Source: a virus
Lineage: Duplodnaviria; Heunggongvirae; Uroviricota; Caudoviricetes
Length of the DNA: 32,306 nt
IMG/VR virus record: IMGVR_UViG_2802429237_000004
Span: 1 to 32,306 of that record
Strand: one strand, 5' to 3'
The notes under the pieces are model-generated. The model saw only the letters and a list, made by a program, of their open reading frames with translations, ran no database searches and was not told the origin of the DNA. The position numbers and the translations under genes were made by a program. How positions within the stretch are numbered: the first letter of the stretch is position 1; each line of letters begins with the position of its first letter. This document shows positions 4,941-31,167 of this stretch, piece after piece.

Positions 4941-5369
4941 CGTTGGCCCCGCTTCTCTGAATCGCTTTATACCGCCATTCCAGCACTTCGGTCAGCGGCA
5001 TAACGTCAGTAACGGATGGCGGCCAGTGAAAGATGGTGGCGATATCAGCCACCAGATCGTCAACCGTCAGGCTGTCGGTAAACCGGCAAGCACCGACTTC
5101 TTCAACAAAAAAGTGACAACCTCAACCGACATGGCAGTGAGATCTGCCGGGTCCATCTCTGCAATTTCCTGTGCAGTCAGTGCCGGACTGGAGATGCGGG
5201 GGATCACGGTCATCATCGCGTTCACATCCATATCCATAATGGCCTGCAGACGTGTGCCGCGCAGCGCACCAGACTGCGGTTTACGCAACACAATTTCGGT
5301 AATTTCTGTTTTACCGCGCATGATAGGAGTATCCAGTTGAATGGTCTTTTCAGTCTGCTTATCGCTCAT
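4933..5369 (-). CDS. E': E+E' tail chaperone fusion made by programmed -1 frameshift
   Basis: Slippery T6G (minus strand, plus-strand coordinates about 5106-5112) near the end of E; the -1 frame read by hand is open for 56 codons (VEEVGACRFTDSL...RSGANDE) and stops at 4933-4935, overlapping the T start codon; about 144 aa total, close to P2 E+E'. Confidence 0.55.
5067..5369 (-). CDS. E: Tail assembly chaperone E
   Basis: 100-aa ORF between FII and T; its 3' end contains a TTTTTTG slippery heptamer as in P2 gene E. Confidence 0.75.
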   Translation of the reverse strand: MSDKQTEKTIQLDTPIMRGKTEITEIVLRKPQSGALRGTRLQAIMDMDVNAMMTVIPRISSPALTAQEIAEMDPADLTAMSVEVVTFLLKKSVLAGLPTA

Positions 5370-5423
5370 TTTGTTGTCCTGTAAATTGGGTTCTGGCGCG
5401 GCATTCCGCGCCGTTCAGATACA

Positions 5424-5939
5424 TCAGAGGCCGAGGGCGTTGCGGTGCGCTTCCATCAGGTCCACACCGTCCACAATTTCCACCATGTTGATAAGGTCCA
5501 CTTCATAAAGCACCTCACCATTGATGGTCAGCTTCGCGTAGCTGTTGGTACTGGTCACTTTGGTGGTGTTGCTTTCACCCGTCTTCCACTCACCGGAATC
5601 CACTTCTTTGTGACGTCCACGCACCACAAGCTCCACGGCCTGCACTTCCCCGGTATCGTCACGCTGGATAGAGCCGGTAAAGCGCAACTGGATGCCATCC
5701 ACCGTGGCTTTGCCCATCTGCTTAAACAGCAGCAGTTCAGTACCACCAATGGAAAATTCTGTGTCCAGCGCACTGTCATCAAGCCCCAGATCCACATCCA
5801 CTGCCCCCGGCATTCCGCCGCCGCGATACTTCTCATATTTGCGGGTGAATTTCGGCAGCGTCAGCGACTCAACGATCCCCTGCCAGTTGTTCCCGTCGTT
5901 AAACAGGTTCAGGTGTTTTAATTTGCGTGGTAAAGCCAT
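5424..5939 (-). CDS. FII: Tail tube protein FII
   Basis: 171-aa ORF directly downstream of the sheath gene; P2 gpFII size and position. Confidence 0.85.
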   Translation of the reverse strand: MALPRKLKHLNLFNDGNNWQGIVESLTLPKFTRKYEKYRGGGMPGAVDVDLGLDDSALDTEFSIGGTELLLFKQMGKATVDGIQLRFTGSIQRDDTGEVQAVELVVRGRHKEVDSGEWKTGESNTTKVTSTNSYAKLTINGEVLYEVDLINMVEIVDGVDLMEAHRNALGL

Positions 5940-5948
5940 GTTGTCCCC

Positions 5949-7121
5949 TTACGCGCTGACCTGGCTGGAGAAATTCACCAGGTACTGATCGGTGATGCGC
6001 TGACGCAGCATCAGGTTTTCAAGTGGCGGCACTGGCGTGTAGTCGTAGTCGATGGTGAGCTTCCCGGCTTTCAGCGTGTCTTTATCGTTCACCGACTCAT
6101 CCAGCCAGCAATCACCACCAATGAGATAGCCCTGACTGACCAGGCTACGCATTTTGGCGCGGATACCTTCGATAATGTCGCGCGCCAGCGACGGGTTCAG
6201 CGGTTTATCCACCGCCCACATGTGCGCTTCTGCCATCGTGTCCGTCAGCACCTGCGCCGTGCGGGTGTAGTTTTCGAAAGCAAAAAGCGGATCATCGCTC
6301 AGACAGCGGGAACCCCAGAAGCGGAAACCATCCTTGCGCACAAGCGTGGTGACGTCATTCTGGTTCAGCAGACCTGCATCGGTTGCCGGGTCCTGCAGAT
6401 CCCAGAACACATCAGCAGAAATTCCGGTGACACCGTTCACGCCCACGTTGGACAGGCTTTTGTGCCACCCGGTCTGCTCATCAATTTTGGCACGCAGACC
6501 AAGCGCACGAGCGGTGGCATATGCCGTTGCTTCGGCATTCAGCACCGTGTCCCAGCCAGTAAAGTCAGGCCAGATCAGCATTCCTTCGCGCTGGCTGAAG
6601 TTTTCACGGTAAGTGATCGCCTCCTGTACCGTCTTGCAGCCATACGCTGACAGGTAGGCAAACCCACGCAGGCTTTGCGCCACACTCAGCAACTCAGTCG
6701 CAACGGCTTTGTTATCGTGACCTGGCACGCCGAGAATGCGCGGTTTAACGCCGAGCTGTGTCTGGGCAGATAACAGGGCTTTCATGCCTGTTTTTTTACC
6801 TTCAGCGGTCACTGCGCCGATGATATTAGTCGTGGTTTCTTCTTCCGTTTCCCCCTGCGGCACACGCACAACAACGGTCACGGGTTTTGCCTGGTCAGCG
6901 ATGGCATCCAGCGAACGGGCCAGCGTGCCGGACTCACCCGCTTTACCGCTGGCGGTCAGTACATCAGTGATCAGCACGGGTTTATTAAGAGGAAACATTT
7001 TTGCATCGGCATCATCGCCCGTGCAGACCATACCCACGATGGCGGTGCTCACCGTGGTAATGGATCGGGTGCCTTCGTTGACTTCAACAACGCGCACCCC
7101 GTGGTGGTAATCCTGAGCCAT
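5949..7121 (-). CDS. FI: Contractile tail sheath protein FI
   Basis: 390-aa ORF heading the FI-FII-E-T-U-D operon; preceded by a TGT-N12-ACA late-promoter element. Confidence 0.9.
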
Positions 7122-21314: not shown

Positions 21315-22346
21315 CTATCTTTTTATTGCTCGTAGAGTAGTCATTAAATTCTCCCCATAAGGGGTTAAGGTCCAATATGTACCCTTGTCTTTTACACTTC
21401 TATTTCTTTCACTTTGGACCATAAGCCCTAGAGCTCGGAATTGTACTTTGATTGTCTGGACATCAGAACTATCCATACGAATAAACTTTATATGCATATT
21501 TTTAAAATCATCATCCGACCTCAACCCTGCCTCAACAATTTCATAGATGGAAGCGTTGATCAACGTTTTTAATCTATCATCGGAAATTTCATCAATCATA
21601 TAGGGAGAAATATAGGAAAATAATGAATTCCAACTTATCTGAGAGGTCCACTCATACTCTGAACCATCAGATGTCCACTCTGTAGGAGAAGCATGGAAGC
21701 TACATTTAAAAGTAAATAAATCGTCTCCTTGTGCAAGATCCTCAGTCCCTTTCGGTGCAGTTGTGGTATTCTTACTTAATTGATTTTCAAGTTCCTCAAT
21801 AGTCCTCTTCAACCCAAGAATTTCTTTTGCTGAACTCTCACTAGTAACTAAATCTCCACGAACCCATCCTACAGCAGGATGATCTTTAATAAGCCTAATC
21901 AAACTTCTACTGACTTGGCTTCCTAAGTCCGCAGGAGTTTCCCAGAATCGGCAAAGTTTCTTTTTAACAAGCTCTTCAAATGCTTCTAGCTTTTCTTTTC
22001 CTTGAGGAGATGGCTCACATCGCTGGGATGGTAAAAGACCTTTATTTTTGTGCAAAAAACCAATTACTGGCTTTCCTGATTCAACAGCGTAACGATACTC
22101 CATCTCAGTATAACTTATCCCATCAGGCCCTAAGGAACCGTAACGCCCCGCAAGGATTACAATGTAATAATCACTATCATCAATTATTTTCTTTATTAAG
22201 CTCCATTGATCACTATTAGTAGCAGGAAACAACTCCATACCAGCAGGTATACAATCCAGCTCTAAAAGAGCCTGCATGACCTCTTGACGTTCAGTTTCCA
22301 GGTCTGAGTATGTTGAACTAACAAAAACTTGATACCGCTTGTCCAA
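21315..22346 (-). CDS. AT-rich cargo gene: protein with DUF4062-like N-terminal module and unknown C-terminal domain (candidate defence/abortive-infection effector)
   Basis: 343-aa ORF; N-terminus YQVFVSSTYSDLETERQEVMQALLELDCIPAGMELFPA...DYYIVILAGRYGS matches my recollection of the DUF4062 signature; in-frame start is TTG preceded by GAGGGA at good spacing (no upstream in-frame ATG; the next ATG would cut the conserved motif); flanked by terminator hairpins. Confidence 0.6.
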   Translation of the reverse strand: MDKRYQVFVSSTYSDLETERQEVMQALLELDCIPAGMELFPATNSDQWSLIKKIIDDSDYYIVILAGRYGSLGPDGISYTEMEYRYAVESGKPVIGFLHKNKGLLPSQRCEPSPQGKEKLEAFEELVKKKLCRFWETPADLGSQVSRSLIRLIKDHPAVGWVRGDLVTSESSAKEILGLKRTIEELENQLSKNTTTAPKGTEDLAQGDDLFTFKCSFHASPTEWTSDGSEYEWTSQISWNSLFSYISPYMIDEISDDRLKTLINASIYEIVEAGLRSDDDFKNMHIKFIRMDSSDVQTIKVQFRALGLMVQSERNRSVKDKGTYWTLTPYGENLMTTLRAIKR

Positions 22347-23223: not shown

Positions 23224-25638
23224 TTAATACAGGTTCCGCCACTGATCATCTTCCTGCAAACGCTGGTTCCGATAGAAGATACGCAGGCCTGCTCCTGACG
23301 GAATACTGCCTCCGCGAAGGAGTAAATCGACCTCTTTCTCGCTGCCATCAAATCCTCTGGACTTCAGCTCATACACGAGCTGCAGTCGCTGATGGTCTGT
23401 AATTCGCTGTTTGTAGTCTTTACGCCGTTTCGGTTTCACCAGGCGTAACCTTGCTGCCAGTTCCCGGCGCTCTTTTTTGCTCATACTGTGCAGGTAATCG
23501 TGCAACTCCTTGTCATCCATGCTGGTAATGTCCGTTCTGGGGTCCCCATCAGCTGATTTATCTTTCTCCTGTTGGTTCAAATTTTCAGCAAGGGGACAGT
23601 TATTGCCACGAGTCCAAGGGGCGCAAGCGCCCTGGTCGGCTGCCGCCTCCTGAACGTCAACGGCCTTACGAACCATTTTCCACTTCACCGCATGAGTGCA
23701 GATCTTGCCCTCTGCAATGGGTGACCAGATGCCATAAATACGAATACCGTGATCGCCATATGCGGTCGGTTCTTCGTTGATTTCATAAGCAGTTCTGATG
23801 AGGTGATATTTGCGGGGAACCAGTACGCCGCCCTGCTTCATGATGTAGGTGGCAAAACAACCAACATCAGCAGCAGCCAGGATTGCATCAAGGCGCGGGT
23901 TATCCAGTACCGGCGCACCTGCTTTTTTGTCCCCCTGTTGCCTTGCCGCCTGACCAGCCAGCAATCGCAGTTCACGGTAAGCCTGACGCCCCGGAATGCC
24001 AAAGAAGCGGAATTGCTGAACACGATGCAGAGACGCCCAGGCATTAACGTATTCAGCGTTATCACGCAGGGATTTACCCGTTTCCTTGCTGATCTCGCCA
24101 GCCAGACCACGCCCGTCAATGTTCTTACTGATGTATTTCGCGATGTAGCTTGTTGGCGTACCTTTGCGCGGGTTTATCAGCTCAGACTTAAAGCGTGGTC
24201 CCGTGTTATTACCCAGCTCCTCGCGGTCTTCACGAATGGCAAACTTACGCAACAAAGCAGTAATGGTGCGGCGATCTTTTTTGCGCATAAAACACAACAG
24301 GTGCCAGTGAACTGTACCGTCATGATGCGGCTCAGCCACCCGCACGCCATACCAGCGCAATCCGGCTTTGTGCATCGCCTTACGAAATGCAGCAAACATG
24401 CCGACCAGATAATCACTGCTTTGTCTTACCGTCGTATTTGTCCAGGTCGGGTTGGGCCTGCCGTTATTTAGCGTGGAATGGAAACGTGACGGACAGGTGA
24501 TGGTGTAGAAAACGGCGCAGTCACCGCGCATTTCCGCGATAAGCTCCAGACCTTTAACACAGGCCATCATCTCATTGCGGCGATGCGCAGGGTTGCTGCT
24601 GCTGGCGTTTACCACATCCTCCATGTCCAGCATGTCGCCGTCTTCGTTCACCAGTTCATGAGAACGGAAAAACTCCAGCGACTTACGGCGCTGCTCACGT
24701 TTATGCATCACGGCTTCATAGCTGACATAGGGAGATGCTTTTTTGCTGACCAGGCAAACAGCACGCAACTGCTCTTCCCGCCATTCGCAACGCATCTTCC
24801 ATAATTTCCGGTACCACCAATCGGCGCACAACATACGCGCCAGCGAACCCGGAATGAGTTCATAGGGCACGGGTTTACGGCGGTTTCTTTTCCGGCGGAG
24901 TTGCTCAAACGCAGGCGGTATGACATCCAGTCGCAGGGTTTCTGCTGCCACCTTTTCCCATGTCTTGCGGATTTCTTCTGGCTTAACGTCATCGGTGGCA
25001 TACAAATCGCCACAAGCTGCATCAAGGCACATGCTCATATGCGCAGCAACAAGGGTGGACAGGCGTTTCACCTGATCCTGACTCATTTCAGGCAGGATCA
25101 GCAGGCCGTCCAGCCCTTCATGGCTTGCCATAAAGCGAAAAGAAGTGGATAGCTGACTGTCGCGTACATGCTCCAGCCGTTCCAGACATGGCTTAATCGT
25201 CTCACGCAAATAGCGGGAATAAGCCTTTGGCCTGCCAAGGCTGCTGAAGTATTCAATACGTTGCATCAGCGGCCTGCTGATATGGGAAGGCTGGGCGTTA
25301 ACGTCTGCCAGAATGACCATGTCCGGGTTAAAACGCTGCTGCTCATGCGCCAACTTTGCCCGGCTAATGAGCTTATCCTGCTCCATTTCGCGCTGGACAG
25401 GATCACGGGATTCATTAAAGAAATAACGCTCCCAAACCTGATCACTCAGTGCCTCGCGGCGCAGTTGTTCCTGCTCGTTATCGGCAGCGTACAGAGTGAT
25501 CAGGTTTGAAAGCGCAGAAACCGGCGCAACTTCCGCCGGGTCCAGATAAGGGTTAATAGCCTTTTTCGGGCTGTTCCATGAGAATGCTGCGGCGGCCTCG
25601 TTAAAGCCGCTGCAGTTGTTCATATCAGCATGGCTCAT
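23224..25638 (-). CDS. A: Rolling-circle replication initiator A
   Basis: 804-aa ORF with an HUH-type motif ([10 protein letters not shown]) and a Y-x-x-K-Y pair (SYIAKYISK); last gene of the early operon, start overlapping the Dam stop (ATGA). Confidence 0.8.
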
Positions 25639-26492
25639 GCACGCACTCCGTACACGGCAGAACTATCCACGCCACGCGAAGGATCAAATCCCACCCAGCA
25701 GCGCGCCCCAGAAACAGCGATGATTTCTGTTGCAGATTTACTCTCGCCAGCCGACACGCCGATGCTGCGTTTTGCCTTGATGTAGTGGTGAGTGAAATTT
25801 CGATACAGCGAACGGATCAGGGATGTGTCACTGTTAGAAACAATGACTGGATGACCTTCTGATGATCGATATTCAAGAACAGATGCCAGGTGATACTGGT
25901 CATCTTCAGTGAAGCCGTCAGTGTGATAGCCGGAAAACGTACCGTCATAAGGCGGATCGCAATACACCACATCCCCCACCTGCAGCATCGCCAGCGTTTC
26001 ATCAAAGCTGGCGCAGATAAACGTTGCTCGCTGGGCTTTCTCTGCAAATGCGCGAATTTCTTTTTCAGGGAAATACGGATTTTTATAATTACCGTATGGA
26101 ATGTTGAAATGCCCGCTCTTGTTATAACGACATAACCCACGGTAACCATGACGATTGAGATACAGGAAATATACCGCTTTCATGAAATCAGTAATTTCAG
26201 TGGAGTAATTAAACTCCTGCCTTATGTTGTAATAAGCCAACTCCCTGTTTGCTTCCTCAAATAAAGCTCTGGCACGAGATATAAACGCCTCGCAATCAGC
26301 AGCAACCTTTTTATAGAGGTTGATTAAATCAGGATTAATATCCGCAACAAGATAGCTGGGGTAATCCGTCTCCATCATCACAGCACAGGAACCCGCGAAA
26401 GGTTCAACCAGTCGCGGGCCAGCAGGAAGATGTTTTTTCAGTTCGGACATAATGGCAGTTTTATTACCCGCCCATTTCAGGATGGTACTCAT
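25635..26492 (-). CDS. DNA N6-adenine methyltransferase (Dam family)
   Basis: Start moved to [11 protein letters not shown] (ORF-track start is upstream and overlaps the previous gene); KWAGNK AdoMet-type N-terminal motif and DPPY catalytic motif ([10 protein letters not shown]). Confidence 0.85.
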
Positions 26493-26791
26493 ACAGCACC
26501 TCCTGCAATAACATATCCTAAAGCTTCTAATGGGGTTAATGGGCGAATTGATAGCATCACCCATTGTTCTGAAACTGCCATGACGTCATTAACCGGAAGC
26601 ACATGAGAGATAACAGCGGCCCATTCCCTACCCGTAAATACGCCATGCTTCCATTCGCAAAGAGAAAGAACATCACCAACTTTATAGCCACGATCGTCTT
26701 TACGAAGTTCAGCCGTCTTTTGACCTGCAACCACAGCGTTGAAATACTTAGGTGCAATTTTTAATTGATGGATACGCACTGCCCTTGTCAT
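26489..26791 (-). CDS. ASCH/PUA-like (DUF3850-type) small protein
   Basis: Start moved to MTRAVRIHQ, preceded by GGAGG and overlapping the TraR stop (ATGA); about 100 aa; family assignment from memory, low certainty. Confidence 0.55.
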
Positions 26792-27015
26792 ACAGCACCT
26801 CCGTTGTAATGTTTGCCTTTCAGCTCTGCGATTTCCTGGCAGGTAATGCAAAGCTGCACTCCCGGAATGGCGCGGCGTCGTGCTGGCGGAATTGGCGCTT
26901 CACATTCAATACAAAGCACGCGAGACACGCCCGGTGTTTTGGCACGGGCAGCACGAATATGGCGCTGGCGTTCTTCTTCAACGCGCTGCTGTACGAGATC
27001 CATTGCATCAGCCAT
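26788..27015 (-). CDS. TraR/DksA-family C4 zinc-finger protein
   Basis: 75-aa ORF with CIECEAPIP...CITCQ (two CxxC pairs) typical of phage TraR-like proteins. Confidence 0.75.
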
Positions 27016-27254
27016 TAGTGGATCTCCTGCGCTTCGTTCTGGATTGCTTCAGCAGTTACACGCAGCAGTTCTGCCGCTTCGACGTGGTTTAGCTGGCGGG
27101 ATGTGATATGACACGCCAGGCTATCAAGGCGAGCTGCCATTGCTTCAGCCCTTGCCCGACGTTCTTCCAGACGAGCCTCTGTCAGTAAAATATTAAGCCC
27201 TGCGTCATCCGGTCCGGTTTTAGTCGTGAGGATTTCAATATTACGCATAATCAA
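27015..27254 (-). CDS. Hypothetical early protein
   Basis: 79-aa ORF in the early operon; its stop overlaps the TraR start (TAATG); no function recognised. Confidence 0.5.
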   Translation of the reverse strand: MIMRNIEILTTKTGPDDAGLNILLTEARLEERRARAEAMAARLDSLACHITSRQLNHVEAAELLRVTAEAIQNEAQEIH

Positions 27255-27315: not shown

Positions 27316-27657
27316 TTAATTCGGCATGGTTAGCCGTCTGGGAAATAAGCTCACCACTGCACGAAAATGATTCATTGCTTTAATCAGCTCCCGCTTTTCG
27401 TCAGTGGTCAGCTCATTAATGCTGATGCTATGACGTGCAGCTGGAATTTTTGCCATAAAGAATATGGCAGCCAGTGCCCGTTTATTTTGTTCATTATTGA
27501 TATCCCGTGGATCACGCATATCTTTAATAAACCGCTCAAGCTCTGACTCAATATTCAGGCCAAAAACTTTCGCCCTTAATTCCGCTATGTGATTAAGTCC
27601 ATTCAGGCGTTCACCGGGACTTAATGGAACAGTCGCCGCAGCGCCTTCAATAGCCAT
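27316..27657 (-). CDS. Hypothetical early protein
   Basis: 113-aa ORF on the early-operon strand; no function recognised. Confidence 0.5.
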   Translation of the reverse strand: MAIEGAAATVPLSPGERLNGLNHIAELRAKVFGLNIESELERFIKDMRDPRDINNEQNKRALAAIFFMAKIPAARHSISINELTTDEKRELIKAMNHFRAVVSLFPRRLTMPN

Positions 27658-29228: not shown

Positions 29229-30167
29229 ATGTCAACTCAAAAAAACACATTTCGCCATGTTAGCGAGAGTCTAAAAACTTCAATAATGCAAAACCGTGGG
29301 GGACAGAAAGTAATTGAGCGTATACTTGTTGCGTATGGTTTTACTTCGCGGCAAGCATTTTGCAATCATCTGGGTATCTCACAAAGCACGATGGCCAACA
29401 GGTATGCTCGTGACACATTTCCTGCTGACTGGGTGATAATTTGCAGTATAGAGACCGGCGCATCTATCGACTGGTTGGCATCGGGAATCAGCTGTGAATC
29501 ATCCTCAGTTTTATTAAATGATGAACGTTTAGCCCATACCAAATCTGATGACCTGGATAGAACTAATTCAATAGCCCAAAAGTTCCCAATCGAGACCAGC
29601 ATAAATCCTAATAAAGGAGGGAAGGCGGCAATTGATCGCTTAGTCGCAGCCTACGGCTTTAGCACCCGACAAGCCCTAGCAAACCATTTGCAGGTTTCAA
29701 AAAGCACTGTAGCAAACAGGTACTTACGAGACACGTTTCCTAGCGACTGGATCATTCAATGCGCTCTTGAAACAGGAACTTCATTACTCTGGCTCACAAA
29801 CGGCAATGGCCCCAAATTTATCGATAATTCCAGCTCTGTAGCCCAACTTAAACACCAAACAATCATTGACGGTAAATTACATGATGAAGGCTACTTAGCA
29901 TTTGACAAGACGCTTATACCTTCCGGATTGAAAAAACCTATTGGAGTTACCGCAGAAGGAAAAACCTTTATTGCAGATACAGAATATGATGATGTTTCAG
30001 ATGGTAGTTGGTTGATTGAGATTGAAGGTAAAGTAAGTTTAAGAAAATTAACAAGAATTCCAGTTGGAAAAGTAAAAATCACATCAGATACAACTGATTT
30101 TGTTTGTAAGCTTGAAGACATTACAACCATCGCAAAATGTTGTTGCGTTTTTTCAAAGGAAATTTAA
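29229..30167 (+). CDS. cI: CI-like immunity repressor with two tandem 186 CI-type N-terminal HTH domains
   Basis: 312-aa ORF; two consecutive segments (ERILVAYGFTSRQAFCNHLGISQSTMANRYARDTFPADWVIICSIETGASIDWLASG and DRLVAAYGFSTRQALANHLQVSKSTVANRYLRDTFPSDWIIQCALETGTSLLWLTNG) each resemble the 186 CI N-terminal DNA-binding domain; AT-rich C-terminal third; start codon choice uncertain (weak Shine-Dalgarno). Confidence 0.7.
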   Translation: MSTQKNTFRHVSESLKTSIMQNRGGQKVIERILVAYGFTSRQAFCNHLGISQSTMANRYARDTFPADWVIICSIETGASIDWLASGISCESSSVLLNDERLAHTKSDDLDRTNSIAQKFPIETSINPNKGGKAAIDRLVAAYGFSTRQALANHLQVSKSTVANRYLRDTFPSDWIIQCALETGTSLLWLTNGNGPKFIDNSSSVAQLKHQTIIDGKLHDEGYLAFDKTLIPSGLKKPIGVTAEGKTFIADTEYDDVSDGSWLIEIEGKVSLRKLTRIPVGKVKITSDTTDFVCKLEDITTIAKCCCVFSKEI

Positions 30168-30177
30168 AGGAACATAC

Positions 30178-31167
30178 ATGAATTCTGAAAATAAAAAAAA
30201 TGAAAACAACGATTATGTTGAAAAAGTTAATTGCGAATGGAAAGATCTTTATAATATTTTAAATGAAAATCTGCATAAATTTAATGAAAATGAACGCGCC
30301 TACTTAGTCGACTTATTAAAAAAAGGTGAACTTGATAAATTCAGAGAATACTACTGGAAATTAGCCCAGCAAGAAAAAATGAACTACAGCGATAAAGCTG
30401 GAGATATTTTTATTAATGAAAACAATAAGATAGATGAATTAATAAAAGAACAAAAACATCTTCGAGAGATAATGCGATCATATACCAAACGTTTATTGGA
30501 GGCTGAAGAGTCCAAAGCTACGTTACATCTTCGGAATGAGAATTTAGAAAAACTAAATTCTGAAAAAGAAGCAATTATTGAGCAAGCCGTATCTAGAATA
30601 AAGCAACTTGAAGCATCTAACAGCGAATTACAAAGCCGAGTACAACAAGAAAGGATTGATGAGAAAATACCAGGATATGTCGATAGCGTTAAAAGTGAAC
30701 TAAGTTCAGATGACTTATATTTCATTAAAATGTCGCAAGTATGGGCTTTTACTGGCTGCATTTTCGGGCTACTTGCTGTATGTGCATCATTTTATACACT
30801 CTACGCCACAATTGACTTCAACAATGTTAAAGGCTTTGAGCTATTTTATTTTTTCACACGTGGTTTAATTGGTATTTCCATTCTTTCTTGGCTAGCATAT
30901 ATTTGCCTTGGCAACTCTAAAAAATATACCCATGAATCAATTTTGAGAAAAGATAGAAGACATGCACTAATGTTTGGGCAAGTATTCCTGCAAATTTATG
31001 GTTCCACGTCAACAAAAGAAGATGCTGTGTTAGTCTTTAAAGACTGGAATATGTCTGGTAACTCTGCATTTTCTGACAAAACAGAACTCCCTCCGGGAAT
31101 CCAATCTTTATGGGATTCAACCAAAGAAAAACTAAAGCCAAGTACCGCTGAAAAAGCACAGGAGTGA
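30178..31167 (+). CDS. AT-rich cargo gene: coiled-coil protein with two C-terminal TM helices
   Basis: Start set at the ATG with AAGGA Shine-Dalgarno (MNSENKKNENN...); about 330 aa; a roughly 200-aa Glu/Lys/Leu/Asn-rich heptad region, then two hydrophobic helices (VWAFTGCIFGLLAVCASFYTLYATI, LFYFFTRGLIGISILSWLAYICLG) and a 65-aa tail; very AT-rich; followed by its own terminator. Confidence 0.6.
   Translation: MNSENKKNENNDYVEKVNCEWKDLYNILNENLHKFNENERAYLVDLLKKGELDKFREYYWKLAQQEKMNYSDKAGDIFINENNKIDELIKEQKHLREIMRSYTKRLLEAEESKATLHLRNENLEKLNSEKEAIIEQAVSRIKQLEASNSELQSRVQQERIDEKIPGYVDSVKSELSSDDLYFIKMSQVWAFTGCIFGLLAVCASFYTLYATIDFNNVKGFELFYFFTRGLIGISILSWLAYICLGNSKKYTHESILRKDRRHALMFGQVFLQIYGSTSTKEDAVLVFKDWNMSGNSAFSDKTELPPGIQSLWDSTKEKLKPSTAEKAQE

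Follow-up and report, generated by a model that had tools for sequence, protein, structure and literature searches.

The early operon and its genes

The window analysed here, a stretch of 32,306 nucleotides, includes the early, replication operon of an E. coli prophage that belongs to the P2 family and is of the Fels-2/RE-2010 type. By Pfam, gpA is preceded by a DUF2732 protein and a DksA-like zinc finger, downstream of CII/Apl-type regulators, as expected of a P2-family (Peduoviridae) early operon, and the gene order in the window is the same as in phage RE-2010, P2 and MLG42.

Table 1. Genes and junction repeats of the early operon, in window coordinates
Feature	Coordinates	Strand	Evidence or content
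DUF5347 gene	27316..27657	-	Pfam PF17282, E 1.8e-32; equivalent CDS in RefSeq
DUF2732 gene ("orf79"; P2 Orf80 counterpart), 77 aa	27015..27248	-	Pfam PF10809, E 5.4e-29
TraR/DksA-type C4 zinc finger (P2 Orf82 counterpart), 75 aa	26788..27015	-	Pfam PF01258, E 3.1e-11; phrog_54
Junction repeat, copy 1	26788..26802	-	Shine-Dalgarno, spacer, DUF3850 ATG overlapping TraR TGA
DUF3850/ASCH gene, 100 aa	26489..26791	-	PF12961, PF04266; ATGA overlap at each end
Junction repeat, copy 2	26489..26503	-	Shine-Dalgarno, spacer, Dam ATG overlapping DUF3850 TGA
D12-class Dam gene, 285 aa	25635..26492	-	Pfam PF02086, E 2e-76
gpA (replication initiator endonuclease), 804 aa	23224..25638	-	Pfam PF05840, E 8.8e-127

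An earlier note on this DNA had described a chain of overlapping genes, and reading the sequence confirmed it as a minus-strand series of DUF2732, TraR, ASCH, Dam and gpA. The DUF2732 stop and the TraR start share a TAATG (1-nt overlap), after which three ATGA junctions (4-nt overlaps) follow. A Shine-Dalgarno sequence stands before each chain start, located within the preceding ORF; that of the DUF3850 gene is contained in the last codons of the TraR/DksA gene (GGAV). With these overlaps and ribosome-binding sites inside upstream ORFs, the arrangement fits the translational coupling that had been claimed. The first gene of the chain encodes a DUF2732 protein, the domain under which P2 Orf80 is also annotated; its start is likely the ATG at 27248 (AGGAG 7 nt upstream) and less likely the TTG at 27254, and the identical sequence is a 234-nt CDS in RefSeq. 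A 67-nt gap separates the chain from its upstream neighbor in the early operon, the DUF5347 gene. At the other end gpA, the last gene, lies beyond the interval that the earlier note had covered and starts at an ATG that overlaps with the TGA of Dam. A scan of the operon for promoters and terminators found nothing beyond shuffled expectation, and no internal coding-strand promoter before the ASCH gene or Dam. The overlap chain is genuine but routine among prophages of this type: a related E. coli prophage in RefSeq, with blocks 92–99% identical to the window, has ~19 overlapping same-strand junctions, 12 of them by 1 or 4 nt.

The methylase belongs to the Dam family, as had been proposed from its motifs (KWAGNK at residues 6–11 and DPPY at 179–182). 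It scored 257.5 bits against the D12 profile PF02086 and matched the E. coli Dam structures 2G1P/4GOL at E 5.5e-74; given this last match, the phage enzyme is probably GATC-specific. Its best PADLOC model was "orphan methyltransferase" (E 1e-111), and no cognate restriction endonuclease lies beside it, the neighbors being the DUF3850 gene and gpA. We conclude that Dam is an orphan D12-class DNA adenine methyltransferase. GATC sites numbered 114 (observed/expected 0.8, like other 4-bp palindromes), and the densest 1-kb bin (25001–26000; 9 sites) was not significant after multiple testing, giving no sign of special methylation targets.

The small protein upstream of Dam (WP_000196280) is PUA/ASCH-like, as had been suspected, since it matched family profiles over their cut-offs (PF12961, 83.6 bits against 22.9; PF04266, 25.5 bits against 21.2). 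Its fold is a minimal PUA-like beta-barrel with a C-terminal helix at residues 87–95. The ASCH octapeptide GxKxx[E/T/S]xR is present as G23-x-K25-x-x-E28-x-R30, and the pattern G.K..E.R is shared by all 46 distinct DUF3850 proteins linked to Dam and by 54 of a diverse set of 60 family members. Charged residues (K, E, R, D, H), rather than those of an aromatic cage, make up the conserved set. With a dN/dS of 0.08–0.11, the gene is real and under purifying selection, and its GxKxxExR pocket is intact. The protein also matches phrog_986 (category "DNA, RNA and nucleotide metabolism"), which PHROGs labels "RNA-binding protein". A literature search yielded no experimental study of DUF3850 or of the Dam that P2-like prophages encode.

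An optional 299-bp cassette

Both junctions flanking the ASCH gene consist of one identical 15-mer, GGAGGTGCTGTATGA on the coding strand, which reads TCATACAGCACCTCC on the + strand at 26489 and again, exactly 299 nt further on, at 26788. Unlike the overlap chain, this identity is an unusual feature. Alignment with phage RE-2010 revealed an indel of exactly 299 bp with the 15-mer at its bounds, and the locus of relatives spans 1,321 nt versus 1,620 nt in the window. The DUF3850 gene is an exact optional 299-bp cassette and not a fixed or obligate partner of Dam; this structural part of our account (cassette boundaries, gene structure and presence/absence polymorphism) is close to certain. As for the route of gain and loss, we infer that recombination between the two 15-bp copies would excise exactly 299 bp and produce the TraR–Dam junction found in RE-2010 and most relatives. 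The cassette would bring its own SD-ATGA junction, such that its gain or loss would leave Dam and gpA coupled.

We also considered the 15-bp repeat as a target duplication of the transposon type, a reading rejected because the repeat is a functional SD-ATGA junction that occurs, in looser form, at all junctions of the operon in all lineages.

The cassette was present in 76 of the ~1,097 E. coli genomes having this operon, leaving ~1,021 (~93% of such prophages) with Dam and no DUF3850 gene. Of 160 viral contigs sampled, 128 (80%) likewise had Dam without it, and the DUF3850 gene was absent from the best 30 of 56 matching records in a phage collection. Presence was scattered on a tree of flanking sequence, where 7 or more changes are needed to account for 11 presences, and the flanks of one carrier and one non-carrier differed by just 0.76%. 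The slot directly upstream of Dam also holds other cassettes, encoding TraR, DUF2732, an RNase T-like exonuclease, a C5 methyltransferase and several small ORFs.

Within the clade of DUF3850 proteins to which the window protein belongs (47–100% identical), the gene stood directly 5′ of Dam in 117/117 loci. Across these loci DUF3850 falls into 14 allele groups and Dam into 19, and the upstream neighbor is of five kinds; the DUF3850 gene overlaps the Dam start by 1–11 nt, and the arrangement persists where Dam is ~50% and gpA ~37% identical to those of the window. Adjacency of ASCH and Dam is therefore kept across diverged genomes, as a module would require, although all 117 cases may stem from one insertion. 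Two-way co-occurrence, which a module of ASCH and N6-adenine methyltransferase would also predict, was not seen, each gene being found without the other.

Outside this clade the DUF3850 gene takes other positions. In PHB48 and L262 the order is TraR, DUF3850 and then gpA, with Dam absent; the PHB48-type protein used as a query returned one further locus. In P2, Wphi and L-413C, which also lack Dam, the DUF3850 gene (Orf91) follows gene A. In many unrelated phages, of other families, DUF3850 adjoins helicases or primases. A scan of genome contigs gave 5 loci. These context statistics come from clade-level queries and are deep within Peduoviridae, anecdotal elsewhere (~13 other contexts). Fusion to a methyltransferase was found neither among the homologues listed nor in 10 long DUF3850 proteins checked, a small sample from a family of 18,849 representatives; for other ASCH families such fusions are on record (PMC4738411).

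Function of the DUF3850 protein and its relation to Dam

The earlier note had proposed that Dam and the ASCH protein could act as a writer plus a reader. As stated, this pairing is unsupported: it is countered by the large majority of Dam genes that have no ASCH gene beside them, and by the occurrence of DUF3850 in Dam-less P2-like operons (P2 Orf91, PHB48) and in many unrelated phages. Nor is the idea new. That ASCH domains are m6A discriminators was proposed by Iyer, Zhang and Aravind (2016; PMC4738411) because ASCH domains occur fused to, or in operons with, N6-adenine methyltransferases; according to a 2024 paper, the prediction is without experimental confirmation (PMC11037411). Together, the comparative sequence evidence on a link between ASCH and Dam is mixed. 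DUF3850 is a genuine accessory gene under selection, its arrangement is a known one, and its pairing with Dam is not obligate.

The explanation we prefer starts from the activity shown for other ASCH proteins that have the same motif. On this basis, the DUF3850 protein most likely binds, and probably hydrolyses, the N-acylated exocyclic amine of an N4-acetylcytidine-type base, either in RNA or in a nucleotide. Each of 19 ASCH proteins assayed, none of them DUF3850-type or from a phage, strips tRNA of ac4C, the GKER motif providing a catalytic Lys/Glu pair (bioRxiv 10.64898/2026.02.27.708502), and K25, E28 and R30 of the window protein line up with YqfB K21, T24 and R26, which are catalytic (PMC6972931). 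The profile alignment to YqfB spans YqfB residues 12–50 only, and the C-terminal strand and helix of the window protein differ. The protein would be produced early, alongside those for replication, and its place beside Dam would reflect the point at which the cassette entered a variable operon slot, not a common mechanism. The enzymatic activity, its substrate and the independence from Dam are putative. Taken whole, with an optional cassette, a probable N-acyl-base hydrolase and adjacency to Dam without a shared mechanism, the explanation is tentative and falls somewhat short of an even chance.

Several observations sit uneasily with it. It is not obvious what an ac4C hydrolase would do in a replication operon, the window protein appears to lack the C-terminal half of YqfB that provides E74, H70 and Y89, the invariant adjacency to Dam across re-assorted alleles fits a functional tie, and fusions and operon associations of ASCH with N6-adenine methyltransferases have been published repeatedly (PMC4738411).

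One alternative is that the DUF3850 protein recognises N6-methyladenine, which it would flip out, or hemimethylated GATC, and so guides or modulates, during replication of the phage DNA, the Dam translated along with it, comparable to the UHRF1 SRA domain and DNMT1. We consider this unlikely. In its own clade the gene is always directly 5′ of Dam despite diverged and re-assorted alleles, but one insertion held in place by homologous recombination could account for the whole clade, most Dam genes in E. coli prophages and sampled contigs do without DUF3850, and Dam is absent from the two other P2-like configurations. P2 Orf91 is compatible with an m6A ligand, since the hosts of Dam-less P2 provide Dam methylation; the DUF3850 family is also common, however, in phages of Enterococcus and Listeria, hosts which to our knowledge have no Dam. 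Its PUA-like fold makes the protein kin to the YTH, EVE and SRA readers, yet its conserved residues are the charged set described above in place of an aromatic cage. The recurrent ASCH–methyltransferase fusions and operons in the literature (PMC4738411) favor such a reader, and the m6A prediction drawn from them still lacks experimental support (PMC11037411).

Somewhat less probable again is a role as a non-catalytic nucleic-acid-binding accessory that aids gpA in rolling-circle replication or tunes operon translation and has nothing to do with base modification. DUF3850 lies at most one gene from gpA in all three P2-like configurations and elsewhere adjoins helicases or primases, and prophage ParB–DUF3850 fusions beside ParA have been reported (PMC12704722; bioRxiv 10.1101/2025.10.10.680097). 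The PHROG category is in keeping with such a role, but the label derives from the ASCH prediction and not from a test. The near-invariant K/E/R octapeptide and other polar residues point to a specific small pocket and not to a generic binding surface, and the gene is dispensable in most relatives.

Least probable, and in our judgement very doubtful, is that the DUF3850 protein is an anti-defence blocker, masking or sequestering a methylated signal (m6A on msDNA, or m6-dAMP) from a defence that phage Dam would trigger. Over-produced Dam, including that of phage P1, triggers retron-Sen2 by methylating GATC in msDNA, and racC–recE is a linked blocker–trigger gene pair in the same study (bioRxiv 10.1101/2020.06.22.160242); in the E. 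coli PUA-Cal-HAD defence, activation occurs when a PUA/ASCH-clan domain binds Dam-derived m6-dAMP (PMC12871103). If true, the blocker would explain an optional, frequently gained and lost gene that always lies directly ahead of Dam in its clade, a behavior typical of counter-defence genes. This evidence is purely circumstantial: DUF3850 matches no known anti-defence protein, its sole PADLOC match is marginal (E 0.005), many phages that have no Dam gene carry homologues, and a sponge would need no strongly conserved catalytic-type motif.

Significance and comparison with known systems

The finding as it stands is an annotated gene arrangement together with an already published hypothesis. Its interest lies in closely related prophages that differ by a precise 299-bp cassette with Dam–gpA coupling intact, and that therefore constitute a clean natural experiment, on a question where the 2016 prediction of N6-methyladenine as the ASCH ligand stands against recent biochemistry pointing to ac4C deacetylation. 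If a function emerged, it would be the first for a family of ~19,000 sequence clusters, whose members examined here are mostly from phages and prophages; a negative outcome would make ASCH–Dam adjacency mere operon architecture.

Compared with known phages, the Dam of the window shares 96% protein identity with the RE-2010 enzyme and occupies the same place, just before gpA, as in Fels-2/RE-2010-type and other P2-like prophages. The difference lies in the ASCH gene: RE-2010 and most relatives have none between the TraR-like gene and Dam, which are directly coupled. Like the associations collected by Iyer, Zhang and Aravind (PMC4738411), the window combines a PUA-like domain and an N6-adenine methyltransferase in one operon. 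With racC–recE and PUA-Cal-HAD the likeness would extend to a potential defence trigger, here the phage Dam, beside a small accessory protein; DUF3850 is unrelated in sequence to both RacC and the PUA-Cal sensor, and the comparison is by analogy only.

Among proteins, DUF3850 (Pfam PF12961) has as kin Orf91 of phage P2 and an Enterococcus faecalis protein (PDB 3IUW). Orf91 follows gene A in a phage without Dam, whereas the window clade precedes Dam and is set apart from both P2 Orf91 and 3IUW by a C-terminal helix of its own, SIRxLxPLEALxYxxxGG. The nearest characterised relatives are ac4C amidohydrolases and not m6A readers. In comparison with these ASCH ac4C erasers (E. coli YqfB, T. thermophilus TthASCH, human EOLA1 and TRIP4-ASCH), the window protein is much shorter, and the C-terminal part that carries H70, E74 and Y89 in YqfB appears to be missing or replaced.

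The replication operon and its junctions

The window carries a prophage of the P2 family, and the genes in question belong to its early operon, on the minus strand. This is a replication operon of normal P2-family type, in which one slot is modular and recombining. As the earlier note had proposed, its genes are chained by overlapping stop and start codons; from DUF2732 to gpA, the junctions in the window sequence read TAATG, ATGA, ATGA and ATGA, with a Shine-Dalgarno sequence before every chained start, located within the preceding ORF. The upper end of the span assigned at that time (25635-27254) most likely moves from a TTG at 27254 to an ATG at 27248, where the RefSeq annotation of an identical sequence begins. 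A stretch of the E. coli KS-NP019 chromosome matches the 1,620-bp region at 100% identity, and its annotation already reads 'DUF3850 domain-containing protein' and 'DNA adenine methylase'; differences from the KS-NP019 prophage lie in the rest of the window. Overlaps are commonplace in that related prophage (about 19 stop/start junctions, 12 of them by 1 or 4 nt), and the window's chain is therefore real but ordinary.

Genes of the operon and further genes of the window
Gene	Position	Strand	Length	Pfam match
DUF5347	27316-27657	-	113 aa	PF17282
DUF2732 ('orf79'; P2 Orf80 counterpart)	27015-27248	-	77 aa	PF10809
TraR/DksA zinc finger (P2 Orf82 type)	26788-27015	-	75 aa	PF01258
DUF3850/ASCH	26489-26791	-	100 aa	PF12961, E 1.1e-23; PF04266, E 2.2e-5
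D12 Dam	25635-26492	-	285 aa	PF02086, E 2e-76
gpA	23224-25638	-	804 aa	PF05840, E 8.8e-127
CI-type repressor	29229-30167	+		Phage_CI_repr
DUF4062 cargo gene	21315-22346	-	343 aa	DUF4062
Cargo gene beside cI	30100-31167	+	355 aa	weak, coiled-coil rod domain (sole match)

Elsewhere in the window, the CI-type repressor carries two tandem helix-turn-helix domains and a CI C-terminal domain, and its two heads are clearly alike in sequence, which suggests that the DNA-binding module was duplicated. Both cargo genes lie at spots unlike the closest E. coli genome and may be lysogenic-conversion or defence genes; the DUF4062 gene sits between the portal and DinI genes, where KS-NP019 has a PIN_12 protein.

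An optional cassette ahead of Dam

As a cassette, the ASCH-like gene is both optional and under selection; it entered the slot directly ahead of Dam. The best 30 of 56 phage-collection records covered 82% of the region as two pieces, spanning 1,321 nt versus 1,620 nt in the window. When Salmonella phage RE-2010 was aligned with the window, the absent segment was exactly the ASCH gene, and across the junction ...CAACGGAGGTGCTGTATGAGC... TraR is coupled straight to Dam. The 15-mer GGAGGTGCTGTATGA of this junction has two copies in the window, 299 nt apart, one ahead of the ASCH gene (26788-26802) and one ahead of Dam (26489-26503); the last four residues of both TraR and the ASCH protein are therefore GGAV, the Shine-Dalgarno sequence translated as codons. 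Recombination at any point inside the repeat would remove the ASCH gene precisely and restore coupling.

The operon was found at ≥80% coverage in 1,097 of 5,426 complete E. coli genomes, and the ASCH gene in just 76 genomes (~7% of the operon carriers). In Dam-based samples of viral contigs, the gene stood beside a window-type Dam in 11 of 80 and beside a Dam lineage ~50% identical in 21 of 80. The 11 carriers are scattered over a flanking-sequence tree, a pattern that requires at least 7 changes, and the flanks of one carrier are only 0.76% apart from those of a non-carrier. The gene's dN/dS of 0.08-0.11 indicates purifying selection.

The position just 5' of Dam serves as an insertion point in general, which weighs against a specific tie to Dam; its occupants in other relatives are TraR (69), DUF2732 (49), the exonuclease (2), a C5 cytosine methyltransferase and several uncharacterised small ORFs. 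The C5 enzyme (~298 aa; PF00145, E 3e-16) fills DUF3850's place in two loci from distant relatives (L171 2111-3001; L162 2105-3001), giving two methyltransferases in tandem. In some relatives Dam and gpA are separated by an additional 0.8-1 kb that is presumably a further cassette (L014 and L022, about 5150-5990; L059 and L062, about 5130-6200). In every lineage examined (loci L002-L253), slot genes end in an in-frame Shine-Dalgarno sequence, and unrelated upstream proteins therefore share tails such as GGAV, GGAK or KGGAAWQ. This common tail looks like a 'plug' for cassette swaps without loss of translational coupling.

Fold and activity of the ASCH-like protein

HMM classification, the check suggested for the small protein, returned DUF3850/ASCH and bore out its ASCH/PUA-like fold. 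The AlphaFold2 model (60-sequence alignment) is confident (pLDDT 92), showing a small beta-barrel in which a single helix follows strand 1, and a C-terminal helix specific to the clade. Near-constant family residues are polar (H8, K11, K25, E28, R30, D33, R34, D40, E46, T53); among them are those of the ASCH octapeptide GxKxxExR, which 46 of 46 distinct Dam-linked proteins contain. In alignment, the octapeptide K, E and R fall on K21, T24 and R26 of YqfB, an E. coli ASCH amidohydrolase that requires them for catalysis (PMC6972931). The C-terminal half of YqfB is absent from DUF3850. A 2026 preprint found ac4C removal from tRNA by 19 of 19 ASCH proteins tested, no phage or DUF3850-type protein among them, with the GKER-motif Lys and Glu as catalytic pair (bioRxiv 10.64898/2026.02.27.708502); according to a 2024 paper, the sole experimental support for an ASCH domain concerned N4-acylated cytosines (PMC11037411). 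The best-supported biochemical reading, which we put forward tentatively, is a minimal ASCH enzyme or N-acylated base binder acting independently of Dam.

Relation of the ASCH-like protein to Dam

The adjoining gene does encode a Dam-family methylase with KWAGNK and DPPY motifs, as claimed: residues 4-260 match E. coli Dam structures (E 5.5e-74), and the residues that we take to contact GATC in E. coli Dam (K9, L122, R124, P134, Y138) are the same in the aligned phage protein. The top PADLOC model was 'orphan methyltransferase', and no nuclease gene adjoins Dam among the neighbouring genes. The window contains 114 GATC sites, neither unusually depleted nor unusually clustered; the densest 1-kb bin (25001-26000, spanning the gene A 5' end and dam 3' end) has 9 sites versus a mean of 3.5, an excess of no significance once corrected for 33 bins.

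Some looser functional link with adenine methylation, readers and blockers taken jointly, is a less likely alternative, kept in view because adjacency is invariant within the clade. In 117 of 117 loci with both clade DUF3850 and Dam (80 distinct protein pairs), Dam is the next gene 3' of DUF3850, and its start is overlapped by 1, 4, 7 or 11 nt. This held over 14 DUF3850 and 19 Dam allele groups (85% identity), partly re-assorted into 23 combinations, under five upstream neighbours (TraR, an RNase T-like exonuclease, DUF2732 and two small ORFs), and with Dam ~50% and gpA ~37% identical to the window's. The clade could also descend from one insertion held in place by homologous recombination. 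Three contigs with the ASCH gene, probably decaying prophages, have a frameshift near Dam residue 262 (L046, L049) or a deletion joining Dam residues 1-212 to gpA residues 662-804 (L048).

A phage PUA-like protein beside Dam could in principle mask a Dam-derived defence signal. Two recent studies make this conceivable: Dam excess, phage P1 Dam included, leads to msDNA methylation and triggers retron defence, with linked trigger-blocker pairs carried by prophages (bioRxiv 10.1101/2020.06.22.160242), and an E. coli defence detects Dam-derived m6-dAMP via a PUA/ASCH-clan domain (PMC12871103).

The writer-reader pair suggested in the earlier note is unlikely as an obligate pair: the relationship is one-sided because Dam mostly stands alone, and DUF3850 also occurs in P2-like phages without Dam. 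The gene order in Salmonella phage PHB48 and contig L262 is TraR, DUF3850 (43% identical), gpA; in P2, Wphi, L-413C and many E. coli prophages, DUF3850 (Orf91) comes right behind gene A. Beyond Peduoviridae the family is very large (18,849 representatives at 50% identity; tblastn matches in 537 phage records). In ~13 contexts inspected there, DUF3850 lies in early/replication modules, often beside helicases or primases; only one has an adjoining methyltransferase, of C5 type, and another an N6_N4 methyltransferase 2 kb away. The C5 case is an IS-rich region of the Orbus mooreae chromosome (L259 2173-3246), with DUF3850 160 nt 3' of the methylase. None of 10 long DUF3850 proteins checked had a methyltransferase domain.

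The writer-plus-reader idea was already published, with ASCH as an m6A discriminator (PMC4738411), a proposal unconfirmed as of 2024 (PMC11037411), and prophage ParB-DUF3850 fusions have been described (PMC12704722; bioRxiv 10.1101/2025.10.10.680097). The locus, its genes already annotated in RefSeq, is a further example of this published type of association.
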